Positions 5,526 to 49,840 of a stretch of 64,000 nucleotides of DNA are shown piece after piece (the first letter of the stretch is position 1; every line of letters begins with the position of its first letter). The stretch lies in the sequence record OL770074.2. One strand, given 5' to 3'. The notes under the pieces are model-generated. The model worked only from the letters and a program-made list of their open reading frames with translations, was not told the DNA's origin and searched no databases. Source of the stretch: Escherichia phage vB_EcoM-RPN187. The position numbers and the translations under genes were made by a program.

Positions 5526-5544
5526 CAAAAAGGGCCGAAGCCCT
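5526..5544 (-). terminator. intrinsic terminator-like hairpin (AGGGC-UUCG-GCCCU) followed by U-run on minus strand
   Basis: hairpin with cgaa/UUCG loop immediately after stop of ORF 5544..5969, A-run on plus. Confidence 0.5.
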
Positions 5545-5969
5545 TATTTAAATTTAATTTTCTGAAGTGCATCAATTGCAGCCAAACGCCCTTGTTCACT
5601 TTTAACTGTAATGACCACATCGCCTGATACGATCACCGAACCATCAACAAATTCTATAGAGCCTTTTTTGAAATCGACAGCTGTATCTGGTTCCGGAACT
5701 TCTTCAAAGAATTTAAATTCTGCACCATAAATCAGAATATCACCTTGCATACTATGAATAGTTCGGCCATAATCGCCTACGGCTTCTACAGCAATCACCG
5801 AAACGCCGTAACCAATCATCTCTTCCACAATAAAATCTTTGGACAATAAAGTAGTATGCAGATTAGTATTAAGACGTTTACCAGTCGTATTAAGCATTCT
5901 CAAGAAATTATCTTCTTGACCTTTGATAATACGATATTTCTTACCAACTTCAAAACCTTTAAAAGCCAT
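5544..5969 (-). CDS. hypothetical protein
   Basis: 141 aa ORF, ATG start. Confidence 0.55.
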   Translation of the reverse strand: MAFKGFEVGKKYRIIKGQEDNFLRMLNTTGKRLNTNLHTTLLSKDFIVEEMIGYGVSVIAVEAVGDYGRTIHSMQGDILIYGAEFKFFEEVPEPDTAVDFKKGSIEFVDGSVIVSGDVVITVKSEQGRLAAIDALQKIKFK

Positions 5970-5971
5970 AA

Positions 5972-6151
5972 TTAACCCTTCTTAAGTAAGTCGTAAAAAC
6001 CACCGTTCACATGTTTAGGAGCAGAAACCCGACGAGTAGACAGACGATGACATTCAGGGCAAACATCGGTTTCTCGTTCAGAAATCCTTTTAATTTTTTC
6101 ATATTCATGACCACAATCTTCAGATTGACATTTATAGTCGTATAACGGCAT
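5972..6151 (-). CDS. FmdB-family zinc-ribbon small protein (59 aa)
   Basis: my own translation MPLYDYKCQSEDCGHEYE...CPEC; below ORF-track cutoff; fits between neighbours with TAATAATG junction. Confidence 0.5.
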   Translation of the reverse strand: MPLYDYKCQSEDCGHEYEKIKRISERETDVCPECHRLSTRRVSAPKHVNGGFYDLLKKG

Positions 6152-6153
6152 TA

Positions 6154-6564
6154 TTATTCCTTAAAATGTGCTTTCAACATTTGATACAAAGACCATGCCT
6201 GGTCGTTATTTTCGATAGTAATCGTCATCACCGGAAATTCAGACAATTCGTCAAGTTCATCAGAATCTTGCTCTTCGGACGCTTGATATGGATTTTCAAC
6301 TTCATCAAAGAACTCTGCTTCATTCGTGGAGAGCCAGATAAAGTTTTCATCAAGGATATCACCACCTGTTGCGTATCCAACCGTGCCAGTAGATGTCACA
6401 ATTTTAGTAGGACGTCCGAGATGGTCAACATCTAAAATTTTAAAAGGTTCCATGCCAAGACGTCGTGCATAAATCCCATTATCAGTGTGGTCTTTAATAA
6501 ACTCTTCTTGGGCACGTTTATCTATAAATTGGTACCATGAGTTAACTCGGAATTTATTAGCCAT
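6154..6564 (-). CDS. hypothetical acidic protein
   Basis: ORF-track start is TTG; first ATG (MANKFRV) has SD AAGGAAA. Confidence 0.55.
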
Positions 6565-6791
6565 TAGTAAGTTTCCTTCCAATAAGTTGTACCATTTTCA
6601 GTGATTTCACGGAAGATACCATAGATAGGCATTTCATCACCGAGTTTTTCGTAAACGTAAACCACTTCAGTGTAGCATAAAAATTCTGTCCAGTTTTTCT
6701 GTACAACAACTAAATCAGGATTAAACAGAACATCTTCAAACTCATCGATGTTTGAATCAGTAGTTACATTTTTAATGATTTGGCGTTTCAT
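6564..6791 (-). CDS. hypothetical protein (75 aa)
   Basis: ORF-track N-terminus translates the promoter cassette; ATG (MKRQII) with SD GAGGAG chosen. Confidence 0.5.
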
Positions 6792-6819
6792 AATATTCTC
6801 CTCTTGTTTTGATAGGTCT

Positions 6820-6849
6820 ATAGTATCATAGGCCATAGTTGTTGTACAT
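6820..6849 (-). promoter_or_regulatory. early-type promoter cassette, variant -35 TGTACA, -10 TACTAT
   Basis: member of gataggtctata repeat family upstream of gene start. Confidence 0.4.
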
Positions 6850-7373
6850 CATTTTAGCAAAATAAAATCAACTTGTTCTGCCAATGAACGTCTGAACATT
6901 AATTGACAACTTCCGAGGATGAAATCAGGTGCTTCATAGACCGCGATGTAGTATCCTTTAGCTTTCAAGAGTTCAACATCCACCTGGTCATCAAACCATG
7001 CATAAACCGCGTCAACACTTTCAAATCCAAAATAGAACCCTTTAGCCCAATCTTCACTCAATTCAAATGTTTGCTCAATTCTATAGTATCTTAAGATATT
7101 TTGTTCAAGGAGTTTGTCTTCATTTACTGTAGGACGATTAGGGACATTGTAGTTGTCGCCGTGATGGTAGAAGTTACCTGAGAGTATTCCATGCTTATCA
7201 AGGAACTCCCATGTTTCTTCAGAGTTGTCGGTGCCCGACCAACCGTATGGCGAACGAGGTTCTTTATTCCAAGAGGTTTCCCAAATTCTGACGGCTTTAC
7301 CATCTTCGATAGCAATTCCTGGTAATGATTCACGTTGAGTACAAAAACTACGTTCTACGCGGTAAACTAACAT
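6849..7373 (-). CDS. hypothetical protein
   Basis: 174 aa, ATG start. Confidence 0.55.
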   Translation of the reverse strand: MLVYRVERSFCTQRESLPGIAIEDGKAVRIWETSWNKEPRSPYGWSGTDNSEETWEFLDKHGILSGNFYHHGDNYNVPNRPTVNEDKLLEQNILRYYRIEQTFELSEDWAKGFYFGFESVDAVYAWFDDQVDVELLKAKGYYIAVYEAPDFILGSCQLMFRRSLAEQVDFILLK

Positions 7374-7398
7374 ATTATTCTCCTCTGGTTGTTATGGT

Positions 7399-7427
7399 TA
7401 TAATATCAAAACCAGAGGAGAAGTAAA
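7399..7427 (-). promoter_or_regulatory. early promoter cassette: -35 GTTTAC, 17-nt spacer, -10 TATTAT; flanked by 9-bp inverted repeat overlapping the SD
   Basis: read on minus strand; arms cctctggtt 7381-7389 and aaccagagg 7410-7418. Confidence 0.6.
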
Positions 7428-7432
7428 CAACT

Positions 7433-7852
7433 TTATGCGAAAGCAGCTGGGCTATATTTTTTAATTTGGAATTCAGGAACTACCATGAACTGACCAGCGA
7501 AAACGATGTTATAAAGCTTAACACCATCTTCTACCCAACGGTCGCTAATAAATCCGGCGATTTGCTTAGTTTTCCACGGTGTTCCATCAGTTGCCGCAGC
7601 AATAGTGAATTCATGGTCTTTTTCAACAGAAACTGATCTGCATAGTCCCCATTTGAATGCTTTTTCTTCCGGTTCAATGAATTGGCTTTTAACATAACCA
7701 ATGTTACCATCGGCGTCACGAACTTTAACTTCGTTACGTCCAAAAACCGGATCACTCACAGAAAGAACTTCAACCAACTTCCCGGCAACTTTAGAGCGAG
7801 AAGCAACAGATACATATACGTAATCACCTGTAGAGAGATTTACAATATTCAT
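7433..7852 (-). CDS. hypothetical protein, paralog of 7862..8317
   Basis: 139 aa; shares SRSK.AG.LVEV and GFISD.WVEDG.KLYNIVF motifs with neighbour. Confidence 0.55.
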   Translation of the reverse strand: MNIVNLSTGDYVYVSVASRSKVAGKLVEVLSVSDPVFGRNEVKVRDADGNIGYVKSQFIEPEEKAFKWGLCRSVSVEKDHEFTIAAATDGTPWKTKQIAGFISDRWVEDGVKLYNIVFAGQFMVVPEFQIKKYSPAAFA

Positions 7853-7861
7853 AATAATTCC

Positions 7862-8317
7862 TTAAGCTTTACGAGGAGACACATAACGAGTGATTTCAGA
7901 TTCTTTAACAACTCGGAAGTCACCTAAGAATACGATATTGTATAACTTTTCGCCATCTTCAACCCATTGGTCACTAATGAAGCCACACATAGTATCAGTT
8001 TTGCTTGGATAACCGTATTCATCGATGAAGTCAAATTCTTTATCAGTCTGGAATTCAACACCTTTACAAAGCTCCCATTTGAACTGTACATTAGGTTCAG
8101 TAGAAGAAAAATGAGCGCTCACACGAGTTTCCAGGAATTTAGGACTTACGTAAGCGTACTGAGTATCCTGACGTCCAAAACTAGGAACGATTCGAACTTT
8201 AACTTCTTTAATGCGTCCCATGCCATTTGTGCGAAGTCCGACAACTTCAACCAGACGACCTGCGGCTTTAGACCGGGATGCAGTTGATACACGCTTAATT
8301 TCACCAATAGTAATCAT
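7862..8317 (-). CDS. hypothetical protein, paralog of 7433..7852
   Basis: start set to MITIGEIKRV (aligns with paralog); ORF-track N-terminus MEYNEF is the TATAAT promoter region. Confidence 0.55.
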   Translation of the reverse strand: MITIGEIKRVSTASRSKAAGRLVEVVGLRTNGMGRIKEVKVRIVPSFGRQDTQYAYVSPKFLETRVSAHFSSTEPNVQFKWELCKGVEFQTDKEFDFIDEYGYPSKTDTMCGFISDQWVEDGEKLYNIVFLGDFRVVKESEITRYVSPRKA

Positions 8318-8347
8318 AATTTTTCTCTCTTTGTTTAAGTTGAATTC

Positions 8348-8377
8348 ATTATACTCCATCCATCCATGGATGTAAAC
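8348..8377 (-). promoter_or_regulatory. early promoter: -35 GTTTAC, 18-nt spacer containing CCATGG palindrome, -10 TATAAT
   Basis: minus-strand read upstream of 7862..8317. Confidence 0.55.
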
Positions 8378-8382
8378 TGGTT

Positions 8383-9060
8383 TTATCGCTGTTTTACACT
8401 TAACGGGTCAGGATTTTCAGGGACATCTTCAAGACCAAGCGCATAACGCTGAGCATATTTTAACATCAAAATATCTTTAGCACAATCATGAATACTATCA
8501 TGGGCAACGAATCCTTTTAGCGTACCCATCGGTAATGGACACATACTTAATCCTCGTGTCAACGAGTAAGCTTCGATTGCCGTACGAATATCGCGTTGAG
8601 CCCAGAATTTAACCGGTTCTAATTTATCAGTATCAATATCTGGTTCAAGAACACCTTCATCACGATAGAGGTCACGAATCAAATCGACCAAGATCGGGAA
8701 GTCAAAGCTCATACCACGGCACCACATCTGTGATTTCCATTGGTCAACTTTATTAGCTCGGCAATAGTCTAAAAAGATTTTAATGCCTTCAAGCGTAGTG
8801 ACATCGTCTTCAGACGGAGCCAAGTTTTTACGTGCTTCAGCCGATTGTTCTTTCCACCATTTCATAGTGGATTTAGCGAAAACTCGCTTCCCTTTCTGAG
8901 AAGCTAAATTAAATTTAATTCGCTTACCTCGTTGAACAAGTTCTTCAAATGATTCAACAACTTCAGGGTCGGAATTATATGCAATAACCGCAAGGTCAAT
9001 AACAGCCGCTTTTGATGTATTGCCGAATGTTTCAAAATCTATAATAACATCAGTGCTCAT
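8383..9060 (-). CDS. dexA: exonuclease A (DEDD 3'-5' exonuclease)
   Basis: 225 aa; N-terminal IIDFETFG exo motif; T4 dexA position and size. Confidence 0.8.
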   Translation of the reverse strand: MSTDVIIDFETFGNTSKAAVIDLAVIAYNSDPEVVESFEELVQRGKRIKFNLASQKGKRVFAKSTMKWWKEQSAEARKNLAPSEDDVTTLEGIKIFLDYCRANKVDQWKSQMWCRGMSFDFPILVDLIRDLYRDEGVLEPDIDTDKLEPVKFWAQRDIRTAIEAYSLTRGLSMCPLPMGTLKGFVAHDSIHDCAKDILMLKYAQRYALGLEDVPENPDPLSVKQR

Positions 9061-9069
9061 AATTTTCTC

Positions 9070-10383
9070 TCAAATAAAATGGACGTCAAACCGGCCACGA
9101 GTTGTGCCGACATACAATAACTGTTTAGCTAATTCTGAATCGGCATAATGGATACACGGTGTATAAACAAAGGCCGTGTCAACAGACATACCCTGGGCCT
9201 TATGGAAGGTTGATACTGGTAGTGCCTTCACCTTAGTGAACATACGTTTAGCATCCCAGAATTCGCTCCATGGAGCTTTACCACCTTTATTCCAAAATTT
9301 GTATGTTTCTGCGGCCTTAGCCAAAAACAAATTGAATTTATAAAGCTCTTCTTCAGAAGAAATAACCTTTATATCTTCGCGGATGTATTCTTCATCATCC
9401 CCATATGTTTCTACTGTAAGATTCCAGTATCGTATCATATATTCGCCTGAAACACCACGTGCTTTAACGAATGTAGACGTTTCTACAGCATCTCGAATAC
9501 GAACGAATTGGCCGTTATTGAAAAGCATTTCGGTCATATTTTTACCATCTAGCTTATATGTCTTAGTAAATGGCTCTTGTAGAACAATGACTTCGTCTTT
9601 AATAAATGGTTTTTCTGTTTCAAGAAGTTTTCGGCGAATAATTGAATTTAACTTGTCCACCGACTTATTTGTGAATGCCATCATTCGATTTTCGAAAAGG
9701 TCTTCAGGAGTTTTAACGACGTTAAAATAGTTCATCATATACGATTTAAGGTCTGTATATCCGTGAACACCATGTCCATCAACTACTTTATCGTAAATCC
9801 ATTTGCCATTACGAATATCAGTCGCAACATCAATAATTGGTGCATTGCTACGTTTAACTTCTGTAAGGTTGCATTGCACGAAGTCTTTGTGAGTGAAGAA
9901 AGGACTTAGATACGCAGTTGATTCGCCTGGGTCTACCGGACGAATCTGGCATCGGTCGCCGATTCCAATTACTGTACACCATTTAGGGATACTAGCTAAC
10001 ATTATTTTAAACAGAGAACGGTCGCACATTGACGCTTCATCAAATAACAGTACACGGCACAAGGCTAAGTCTGGAACCTTTTTCTGTTCAAACAATACGT
10101 TTTCTTCGTATGTAGTTGGGTTGATTTTAAGAATGCTATGAATAGTCGATGCTTCTTGACCCGCAAGTTTGCTTAGAACCTTTTTAGCAGCATGTGTAGG
10201 GGCTGCTAAAATAATACCTGATTCTCCAGAAGAAATAAGGGCTTCAACGATGAATCTAGTAAGGGTTGTTTTACCTGTACCAGCAGGCCCATTAATAGTT
10301 ACGTGATGTTTCTTTTCTTTAATAGCGTTCATAACAACGTTGAAGGCGTTTTTCTGGCCTTCAGTCAAATCATCAAATGTCAT
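9070..10383 (-). CDS. dda: Dda DNA helicase (SF1)
   Basis: 437 aa; Walker A GPAGTGKTT; T4 Dda size and position. Confidence 0.9.
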   Translation of the reverse strand: MTFDDLTEGQKNAFNVVMNAIKEKKHHVTINGPAGTGKTTLTRFIVEALISSGESGIILAAPTHAAKKVLSKLAGQEASTIHSILKINPTTYEENVLFEQKKVPDLALCRVLLFDEASMCDRSLFKIMLASIPKWCTVIGIGDRCQIRPVDPGESTAYLSPFFTHKDFVQCNLTEVKRSNAPIIDVATDIRNGKWIYDKVVDGHGVHGYTDLKSYMMNYFNVVKTPEDLFENRMMAFTNKSVDKLNSIIRRKLLETEKPFIKDEVIVLQEPFTKTYKLDGKNMTEMLFNNGQFVRIRDAVETSTFVKARGVSGEYMIRYWNLTVETYGDDEEYIREDIKVISSEEELYKFNLFLAKAAETYKFWNKGGKAPWSEFWDAKRMFTKVKALPVSTFHKAQGMSVDTAFVYTPCIHYADSELAKQLLYVGTTRGRFDVHFI

Positions 10384-48527: not shown

Positions 48528-48832
48528 TATAATGTTCTCTCAAATTTGTGGAAGCATTTACGGCATTTCAATTTCAAGTTATCAGTGGTCCAGTTAACCA
48601 GTTGGACTTGGATAGTTCCACATTCCGGACATGGATGTTTTGCTGCCGATTTGGCAGCATTTTCACGTCGTTCAACCATTTTCATTATTTCGTTCCATGC
48701 CGGAGGAACGAACTCTTCTTCACCGTGGATTTTATCTCGCTGAACAAATTCAATCTTTGAACTATCGTCGATAAACTTAACCAAGCTGTGATTAGTGCTC
48801 ATGTCAATATCCTCTAAAAGACGTAGTTTCAT
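48527..48832 (-). CDS. hypothetical zinc-ribbon protein
   Basis: 101 aa; CPECG...CRKC; SD GAGGT. Confidence 0.5.
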   Translation of the reverse strand: MKLRLLEDIDMSTNHSLVKFIDDSSKIEFVQRDKIHGEEEFVPPAWNEIMKMVERRENAAKSAAKHPCPECGTIQVQLVNWTTDNLKLKCRKCFHKFERTL

Positions 48833-49782
48833 TATAAAACCTCAATGGCATTTCGTAAACCATCCGCTTTCGCATTCAGAGCTTTTAACGATTTAGTTTT
48901 TTCTGCAATCTGGGCTTCGACTTCTTTCAGTCGAGATTTGAGATATTCGCGTTCTTCTCTTAAATTATCAACTTTTTCTACTTTAGGTTCTTTAATAGGC
49001 TTAGGTTTATACGTATTAGGGTTCTTCAGTTTAATTAGAATGTGTGAACTGTACAGCATTGAACCATTATCTTCGGTTTCGTCATACATTTCCACTACGT
49101 CCATCATCTCCACCATCGTGCAGAGTTTATAAGACAACGAACGAATAGTTTTGTTGTGCTTATTAATTTCTTTAGAGTTCATGGTGCCTAGATTACGCGA
49201 GTAGTAATAAGGAACCTGGATATCAATTGTCAATGATGCGTTACCATTACCAGTTGGTTTGAATACTGCAGTAACCCAATCTTTAACATGAACTTTATTT
49301 GTACGACCATCGCCACCTGTGAATAATTTACGAGAATGTTTAAAAAGCATATTCACTTGGTTATTGAATTCACAAGCAAATTTATCAGCAAATTTAGTTT
49401 CAGGAATGGTAGATAACCAATCAGCCAAGTAGGTCTTTTTAACATCGTTAACAATAGTAAATTCAACCAAATCGGTTATAGATGTCGCAGTTTTAATGAA
49501 GCTCGGCTTCATAAAGTTTTTAATGTTATCGCGAGCTACAGTAGAAGATAATAAACGAGAACGTTTGAACCATTGAAGCAGTGTCCCTAATGAATGAGAA
49601 TACGCGTTTTGAGTATCTTTACAGATATGATTTTCTTGGCCTGTGTATGTACCAAAATCGCGAAGAATGCCACTTACTACAACTCGGTGTGGAACATCAA
49701 ATCCTAATGATCCAGAAGCACGTTGGGCATGAACGTTAGCGATAAGACCTGCAAAATAATCAATGTAATGTGAACGTGTCAT
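48832..49782 (-). CDS. hypothetical protein with C-terminal coiled coil
   Basis: 316 aa, ATG, SD GAGAGGAAA. Confidence 0.55.
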   Translation of the reverse strand: MTRSHYIDYFAGLIANVHAQRASGSLGFDVPHRVVVSGILRDFGTYTGQENHICKDTQNAYSHSLGTLLQWFKRSRLLSSTVARDNIKNFMKPSFIKTATSITDLVEFTIVNDVKKTYLADWLSTIPETKFADKFACEFNNQVNMLFKHSRKLFTGGDGRTNKVHVKDWVTAVFKPTGNGNASLTIDIQVPYYYSRNLGTMNSKEINKHNKTIRSLSYKLCTMVEMMDVVEMYDETEDNGSMLYSSHILIKLKNPNTYKPKPIKEPKVEKVDNLREEREYLKSRLKEVEAQIAEKTKSLKALNAKADGLRNAIEVL

Positions 49783-49810: not shown

Positions 49811-49840
49811 ATTATACTCCAACCATCCTTGGTTGTAAAC
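49811..49840 (-). promoter_or_regulatory. early promoter: -35 GTTTAC, 18-nt spacer with small hairpin, -10 TATAAT
   Basis: minus-strand read; near-identical copy at 50804..50831. Confidence 0.55.

Follow-up and report, generated by a model that had tools for sequence, protein, structure and literature searches.

MotB of bacteriophage T4 is one of the few phage nucleoid-associated proteins on which some experimental work exists. It is an abundant early protein with a KOW domain at the N terminus and an OB-like domain at the C terminus, and it binds both modified and unmodified DNA tightly and without sequence preference (PMC7827196; PMC6070864). On DNA, it co-purifies with H-NS and StpA and overrides the H-NS footprint at proV; alone, it de-represses part of the H-NS regulon, and it doubles the burst size (PMC7827196; PMC6070864). 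Overexpression of T4 MotB is toxic to Escherichia coli (PMC6070864). A survey of MotB homologs noted that motB is present twice in phage RB69 (Patterson-West et al. 2021, PMC7827196). Here, we analyze such a pair in a stretch of 64,000 nucleotides of DNA from Escherichia phage vB_EcoM-RPN187 (OL770074.2), referred to as the window throughout, in which two adjacent genes occupy positions 7433-8317. We call them copy A, which encodes a protein of 151 amino acids (aa), and copy B, which encodes a protein of 139 aa. All genes in this region lie on the minus strand.

The pair as such is already known and annotated in RB69 and RB51, and its detection in the window is correct but ordinary. Table S4 of the survey gives RB69p010 the description 'RB69ORF010c similar to motB', and the B-type proteins included there stem from RB69, RB51, Sf24, PhAPEC2, ST0, and others (PMC7827196). 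In the sequence record of RB69, RB69p010 and motB are related to one and the same T4 accession, and the record of RB51 describes RB51ncORF010c as 'similar to motB and RB32ORF010c'. From the evidence presented below, we consider it very likely that copies A and B are two ancient tandem MotB paralogs at a Mosigvirus locus, that both are under selection and retained as one unit, and that they are co-transcribed early during infection and exert a MotB-like, DNA-binding role.

Paralogy and family membership of copies A and B

The two genes were recovered as minus-strand open reading frames (ORFs) at exactly 7862..8317 (copy A) and 7433..7852 (copy B), comprising 151 and 139 codons, respectively, plus a stop codon. 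A sequence-only reading of the window had interpreted them as the outcome of tandem duplication and divergence on the grounds of two shared peptide blocks, and this interpretation is supported, with the refinement that the duplication is old and shared with other phages. The first block, SRSK.AG.LVEV, reads SRSKAAGRLVEV in copy A and SRSKVAGKLVEV in copy B, and the second, GFISD.WVEDG.KLYNIVF, is present in the two proteins as GFISDQWVEDGEKLYNIVF and GFISDRWVEDGVKLYNIVF. Similarity is not confined to a short low-complexity stretch but spans the full length of the proteins: pairwise alignment by BLASTP yielded 64 identities over 145 positions (44%, E 9e-33) and joined residues 6-133 of copy B to residues 2-145 of copy A. 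At the DNA level, a repeat finder detected direct repeats of 49 nt (71%) and 18 nt (94%) between the two genes, their overall nucleotide identity is 55%, and the same codon is used at 36 of 66 identical residues. Synonymous sites differ even inside the shared blocks, which are therefore kept by selection at the protein level and not by recent duplication or gene conversion; recent gene conversion as the cause of the identical peptides was rejected for this reason.

Sequence comparisons assign both genes to the MotB family. The Pfam family PF17613 ('motB, modifier of transcription'), which has a gathering cut-off of 25 bits, is matched by copy A with 127.5 bits (E 5.8e-37) and by copy B with 77.2 bits, and both proteins match phrog_1671 ('MotB-like transcriptional regulator'), with E-values of 4.6e-64 for copy A and 1.3e-51 for copy B. 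Copy A is the closer relative of T4 MotB (47% identity, 129 bits, as compared with 39% and 84 bits for copy B). MotB.1 of T4 and MotB.1-like proteins, which are encoded in the same gene cluster, have a C-terminal G(W/F)(V/I)(T/S)DQW(I/V)EDG core in common with both copies, but the N-terminal domain of MotB.1 is LSm-like (GoF/Frd.2-like; PMC12152347; PMC7827196) and unrelated to the KOW-like domain of MotB. Alignment of the MotB.1-like protein of phage NHEP10 is restricted to the last 29-31 residues at the C terminus of either copy, and both copies carry the N-terminal MotB blocks SRSK.AG.LVEV and EVKVR. As copy B thus retains an N-terminal domain of the MotB type (SRSKVAGKLVEV, EVKVR), it is to be regarded as a MotB and not as a MotB.1 protein.

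AlphaFold2 models built from family alignments are confident for both copies and agree in their two-domain, all-beta layout, which is that of MotB, with four strands in the N-terminal and five strands in the C-terminal domain. The mean predicted local distance difference test score amounts to 85.0 for copy A (predicted template modeling score 0.51), in which linker residues 66-75 are disordered, and to 88.7 for copy B (predicted template modeling score 0.77), which is free of disordered segments. Each protein is predicted to fold into two small beta-barrel domains, an N-terminal KOW/Tudor-like SH3 barrel and a C-terminal barrel containing the DQWVEDG.KLYN core. When the copy B model was compared with viral folds, the best match was a MotB of the T4 type (E 3.4e-13).

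The two proteins differ in build. Copy B lacks an N-terminal hairpin extension of six residues, which is basic in T4 (IIPKDGKSKPQ), as well as the entire interdomain linker, both of which are present in copy A and T4 MotB. The N-terminal half carries a net charge of +7 in copy A, +4 in T4 MotB and -1 in copy B; the C-terminal domain of copy A carries a charge of -5, and copy B is about neutral overall. In 13 out of 13 genomes, the copy B protein has exactly 139 aa without any indel or stop. Copy B keeps every family-invariant core residue. Orthologs of copy A range from 151 to 176 aa, with the change in length restricted to one place, the interdomain segment. This linker (residues ~66-75 of the window protein) is hypervariable and takes up inserts of 0-25 residues rich in S, E, V, and A (loci L004, L010, L012, L013, and L015-L018).

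The ORF of copy A can be extended backwards to an ATG at 8359, which would add 14 codons (165 aa) and would place the -10 element of the promoter described below inside the gene. We prefer the start at 8317, because RB51 does not have the extension in frame and T4 MotB, which starts at the equivalent of the internal ATG, has no counterpart to it, and because a GAGAG-rich ribosome-binding region is located 5' of the ATG of the 151-aa form. The start at 8317 is also used in several records. For annotation, both genes should be labeled as members of the MotB family (motB and RB69ORF010c-type paralog), with copy A starting at 8317 and not at 8359.

Transcription signals around the pair

The 65 nt that separate dexA from copy A accommodate a predicted early promoter of the sigma-70 type, GTTTACA-17 nt-TATAAT (8348..8377, minus strand), which is conserved in relatives and is one copy of a repeated cassette. 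Its TTTACA and TATAAT elements (8376..8348) agree with the consensus at 11 of 12 positions, and the pattern TTTAC-N17-19-TATAAT was observed five times in the window as compared with 0.54 expected occurrences. The sequence-only reading had credited the second copy with a TATAAT promoter of its own. The TATAAT element is real, but it precedes the 151-aa gene, which comes first in the direction of transcription, and a search for promoter-like sites between the two copies found none. Copy A and copy B are connected by the junction TAA-GGAATTATT-ATG (7853..7864, minus strand), in which copy B starts 9 nt past the stop codon of copy A and the AAGGA of its Shine-Dalgarno sequence overlaps that stop codon, an arrangement that resembles the coupling of genes in an operon. 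Given this junction and the lack of a promoter-like site between the genes, the upstream promoter most likely serves both of them, such that copy B would be co-transcribed with copy A. A 12-nt palindrome in the spacer of the copy A promoter, CATCCATGGATG, was considered as a potential stem-loop and rejected (z -0.84); it is not conserved, and relatives have CCAAGG instead.

On the other side of the pair, the 59-nt gap 3' of copy B and 5' of a motB.2 homolog contains a second promoter-like sequence, TTTACT-16-TATTAT (7427..7400), with an upstream TG, together with a stem-loop that has a stem of 13 bp (7422-7410 paired with 7390-7378), a folding free energy of -19.4 kcal/mol and a z-score of -4.5; none of 200 shuffled sequences was as stable. 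The A-B transcript probably ends or is attenuated at this cassette (7378..7427, minus strand), from which transcription probably starts anew. The cassette resembles the promoter-early plus stem-loop (PeSL) cassettes that mediate modular shuffling in T4-type phages (Arbiol et al. 2010, PMC2839356). Judged by these signals, the A-B pair presents itself as a two-gene module bounded by regulatory cassettes. The region comprising the ribosome-binding site and the stem 5' of the motB.2 homolog (7371-7402) is repeated with 78% identity 5' of the cef gene (6789-6820), and an inverted repeat (6796-6814 and 7404-7422) is present in the same two upstream regions. This suggests that related regulatory cassettes are positioned ahead of the successive genes motB.2 and cef.

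Spread, age and function of the second copy

When 50,697 phage records were searched by tblastn, B-type genes were counted from 80% and A-type genes from 60% identity upwards. B-type genes were present in 207 records and A-type genes in 202, and about 570 more records contained only distant MotB types such as that of T4. The second copy is thus found in 207 of 777 MotB-carrying phage records, i.e., in about a quarter of the MotB-carrying phage genomes of the searched collection. A scan of IMG/VR for further loci returned three, and GenBank phage records were used for the wider sample. The co-occurrence of the two types is derived from the counts within these identity bands (202 vs. 207) and from 13 fully inspected loci, all of which, distributed over two genera, exhibit the same A-B pair. 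In the Tequatrovirus phages RB51, Sf24, and pSe_SNUABM_01, an A-type motB is directly followed by a B-type gene; identities to the window proteins amount to 75-81% for the A-type (tblastn; 84% for RB51 in a MAFFT alignment) and to 88-90% for the B-type. Across the Mosigvirus and Tequatrovirus phages compared, the orthologs of copy A are 75-100% and those of copy B 88-100% identical. The junction was read in ten loci and found to be TAA-GGAATTATT-ATG with 9 nt in nine of them and to comprise 12 nt in Sf24; according to the gene coordinates, the same 9-nt gap separates the genes in the remaining three of the 13 loci. Among the phages searched, none was found in which a B-type gene stands alone or at another locus; it always follows a motB gene at a distance of 9-12 nt. 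The two genes are retained together in Mosigvirus and in part of the Tequatrovirus phages, e.g., RB51.

Across the 13 genomes, the median pairwise ratio of nonsynonymous to synonymous substitutions (dN/dS) is 0.25 for copy A and 0.15 for copy B, at a median dS of ~0.4-0.45. These values point to purifying selection on both copies, as expected for functional genes, with copy B being more strongly conserved than copy A. With its complete set of core residues and this stronger constraint, copy B clearly does something. A neighbor-joining tree was calculated from ~149 alignment columns with 200 bootstraps and rooted on MotB homologs from Klebsiella phages. The B-type proteins form a clade in 200 of 200 bootstraps, the other MotB types of coliphages (A, T4, JS98, and SP18) group to the exclusion of B in 160, and B is the sister of A in only 33. 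With B placed outside the other coliphage types, either the A/B split is older than the radiation of MotB in these genera, or B went through an early phase of faster change.

The position of B in the tree would also be compatible with a different origin, in which B represents a distinct old MotB lineage that was placed beside motB by recombination between promoter cassettes and in which the pair now moves between genera as a cassette. The pair is indeed flanked on both sides by promoter cassettes of a kind known to shuffle modules (PMC2839356), it is present in two genera in different neighborhoods (RB51 as compared with Mosigvirus), and domain-level mosaics are common in the MotB family. On the other hand, a B-type gene that is separated from motB was never encountered among the phages searched, duplication in place followed by accelerated evolution of B explains the tree equally well, and an external donor lineage is not visible: among 1.84 billion representative proteins, only 21 clusters (50% identity) match copy B at E ≤ 0.001, which makes MotB a tiny family, and the B-type makes up one of these clusters. 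We regard such an origin as possible, though not probable.

We return to the reading of A and B as ancient tandem MotB paralogs and to what they would do for the phage. Homology to T4 MotB makes it probable that each of the two is abundant, binds DNA non-specifically and remodels complexes of DNA with H-NS. Straight after infection, the strong early promoter of the host type that precedes copy A would most likely drive the joint transcription of both copies, and copy B would be translated from the ribosome-binding site overlapping the stop codon of copy A. Both would act as abundant early proteins that coat DNA without sequence preference, the placement of H-NS on DNA would be altered, and phage yield would be modestly improved. 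Copy A, the N-terminal half of which is basic and which has a flexible linker as in T4, would be expected to act in the same way as T4 MotB. Several points weigh against this reading. The functional statements on A and B are transferred from T4 MotB, to which the two proteins are only 47% and 39% identical, respectively; the N-terminal half of copy B is devoid of a net positive charge, and its DNA binding may differ or be absent. A PDB sequence search with copy A returned nothing at E ≤ 1, and the MotB relatives are without a solved structure. Co-transcription is deduced from the DNA sequence only. The tree is indicative only, as it was calculated by simple neighbor-joining for a family with clear domain mosaicism, and accelerated evolution of B could give the false appearance of an early branching.

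Hybrid MotB genes illustrate this mosaicism. The metagenomic proteins P0035 and P0026 combine an A-type front with a B-type back, P0124, also from metagenomes, combines a T4-type N-terminal with a B-type C-terminal domain, and in P0036 as well as in the protein P0033 of the isolate Shf125875, a T4-like N-terminal part is connected to an A-type C-terminal domain. P0038 is also counted among the natural hybrid MotB proteins. P0124 is encoded on five contigs (L006-L009 among the loci) from at least four sequencing runs and, wherever both flanks are visible, its gene is the sole motB gene between motB.1 and cef; the same holds for the gene for P0035 (L005, 1373-1894). Hybrids of this kind are the products expected from unequal crossover of tandem copies at the FKW or DQWVEDG blocks, and those detected on a single contig could be artefacts of assembly collapse.

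The compact, uncharged build of copy B suggests a modified role. In the most elaborate form of this idea, MotB would be a subfunctionalized nucleoid-associated protein, with copy A responsible for bulk DNA coating, copy B for a distinct job, and the fusions of N- and C-terminal domains as a third allelic solution. Capping or tempering a toxic polymerization of A, interaction with another host partner (StpA or another silencer) and action on modified phage DNA or on RNA are candidates for the distinct job. If this were true, the fusion genes would show that the N- and C-terminal domains are exchangeable modules. We consider such a division of labor unlikely. It is also quite unlikely that A and B act only together, whether they form a heteromer or B tempers the toxic DNA coating by A in the role of a modulator or antidote; the two would then not be independent DNA-binding proteins. 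Genes of the two types co-occur almost exactly and are translationally adjacent, the charges are complementary (A N-terminal half +7, A C-terminal domain -5, B about neutral), and the toxicity of overexpressed T4 MotB (PMC6070864) would fit an antidote; however, T4 and the ~570 other phage records with a single motB manage without a partner, and in some phages fusions with one N- and one C-terminal domain replace the pair, which argues against an obligatory two-subunit complex.

Two further explanations are hardly tenable. A recent duplication in this phage or its near ancestors with one copy drifting, although it is the simplest interpretation of the sequence-only reading and would account for adjacent genes on the same strand with similar lengths and long identical peptide blocks, conflicts with the low nucleotide identity and the largely randomized synonymous positions, with the sister position of B to A in so few bootstraps and with dS values of 0.4-0.6 between genomes, which argue against recent recombinants carrying the segment of this phage, and it is refuted by the conservation of the same two copies across Mosigvirus and Tequatrovirus (RB51, Sf24, and pSe_SNUABM_01). 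Nor is copy B likely to be redundant or decaying, a pseudogene in the making, as its smaller size, the loss of hairpin extension and linker and the disappearance of the basic N-terminal charge might lead one to believe, since its dN/dS is lower than that of A, its 139 codons are intact in all 13 genomes, copies with at least 80% identity occur in 207 phage records, and its AlphaFold2 model is confident and compact.

The finding matters little beyond correct annotation. A second, better conserved copy in 207 of 777 records means that the T4 model with its single gene does not cover the whole family, and copy B is a cheap and obvious target for work on how T-even phages counter H-NS. The locus exemplifies the long-term retention of paralogs, the collapse of tandem pairs into hybrids and the loss of genes by recombination between repeated promoters.

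Neighborhood of the pair and comparison with related phages

The gene order in the window is dda-dexA-A-B-motB.2-cef-goF-39.2, which places the pair in the early, non-essential dexA-cef region of Tevenvirinae, the location of MotB. The dexA exonuclease gene (8383..9060, minus strand; PF16473) is situated directly upstream of copy A, and the dda helicase gene (9070-10383, minus strand) lies upstream of dexA. The gene downstream of the pair (6849..7373, minus strand) encodes a MotB.2 homolog of 174 aa (34% identity to T4 MotB.2, E 9e-17; phrog_1106). It was considered as a third paralog and rejected, as it does not match PF17613 and has no similarity to MotB; when the whole window was scanned by tblastn for additional MotB or MotB.1-like copies, nothing apart from A and B was found. 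Further downstream, goF (74% identity to T4 GoF), cef and the zinc-ribbon gene 39.2 are present. A possible second diverged pair is formed by the minus-strand genes at 5544-5969 and 6154-6564 on either side of 39.2 (5972-6151): in the record of vB_VIPECOMC06, the goF ortholog and a 141-aa protein are both assigned to phrog_622. The 141-aa protein is only 29% identical to T4 GoF (E 0.048), and its position is that of T4 39.1.

The DNA of the window is ~97% identical to that of Mosigvirus phages such as NHEP10, O157 typing phages 3 and 6, and PhAPEC2. In NHEP10 (L001, 3081-3575) and most close relatives, dexA and copy A are separated by a gene for a 164-aa MotB.1-like protein. The window lacks this gene, which explains a gap of ~557 bp in DNA alignments. 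Wherever the MotB.1-like gene is present, one and the same promoter cassette stands on either side of it as a direct repeat, and the four genomes without it (the window, G2285, JK42, and vB_VIPECOMC06) keep one chimeric cassette. The crossover point is shared by the window and G2285, a second one is found in JK42 and a third one in vB_VIPECOMC06. Three different crossover points indicate that the gene was probably deleted repeatedly and independently by recombination within the 29-bp repeated promoter, as has been proposed for PeSLs. Another near-identical copy of the cassette (TTTACAACCAAGGATGGTTGGAGTATAAT plus ~15 nt on each side) resides 41 kb away at 49811-49839 (minus strand), upstream of an ORF at 48832-49782 (316 aa). 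As this copy matches the 'upstream-type' copy ahead of the MotB.1-like gene of NHEP10, the cassette can be considered a dispersed repeat. Paralogy between the 316-aa gene and its 310-aa neighbor at ~49.8 kb was looked for and was not detectable. In four genomes that kept the MotB.1-like gene (L011, L012, L013, and L018), the motB-adjacent promoter, 60-90 nt upstream of copy A, is degraded, with TTGTACA at -35 and TATAGC or TATAGT at -10. In these genomes, motB would be read from the promoter ahead of the MotB.1-like gene.

Compared with the PeSL cassettes of T4-type phages, which are strong sigma-70-like promoters with AT-rich upstream regions in intergenic positions of the hyperplastic early region (PMC2839356; PMC4122927), the window offers a similar picture. 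The cassette at 7378-7427 matches the layout of promoter plus stem-loop, with the stem extending over the -10 region. The cassette at 8348-8377 is repeated and found at deletion junctions, but it is without a significant stem-loop in this phage (z -0.84), and its link to recombination comes from comparative junctions alone.

T4 MotB (NP_049626, PF17613) belongs to the same family as both copies and shares with them the two-domain layout, the location in the dexA-cef region, the probable control by an early promoter and the blocks SRSKAAG.LVEV, EVKVR, FKW, and G.I.DQWVEDG.KLYN.VF. T4 has a single MotB of 162 aa as compared with two in the window, and the order dexA-motB.2-motB.1-motB-cef of T4 contrasts with dexA-A-B-motB.2-cef in the window. 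In RB51, the same pair as in the window (motB and RB51ncORF010c; also present in RB32) is 81-84% identical to copy A and 90% identical to copy B, but it follows motB.1 and motB.2, whereas the Mosigvirus pair precedes motB.2.

The closest counterpart is RB69, the type Mosigvirus, in which motB (RB69p011, NP_861701) and RB69ORF010c (RB69p010, NP_861700) are the same genes with unchanged order and strand, with motB.2 downstream and dexA upstream. RB69 MotB (P0014) is 91% identical to copy A. As motB.2 (6849-7373), RB69p010 (7434-7853), and motB (7863-8318) occupy almost the same coordinates in RB69 as in the window, the window can be identified by its sequence as the left end of a Mosigvirus genome of the RB69 type and the pair as RB69 motB, the counterpart of copy A, and RB69ORF010c, the type to which the compact copy B belongs together with RB51ncORF010c. 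RB69 differs from the window in the presence of a MotB.1-like gene between motB and dexA. This gene is annotated as two ORFs of 29 and 132 aa (L022, 3377-3466 and 3475-3873), which are apparently one interrupted gene; the split accounts for the '29 aa peptide' category of the 2021 MotB survey. Otherwise, RB69 and the window are distinguished only by point differences.

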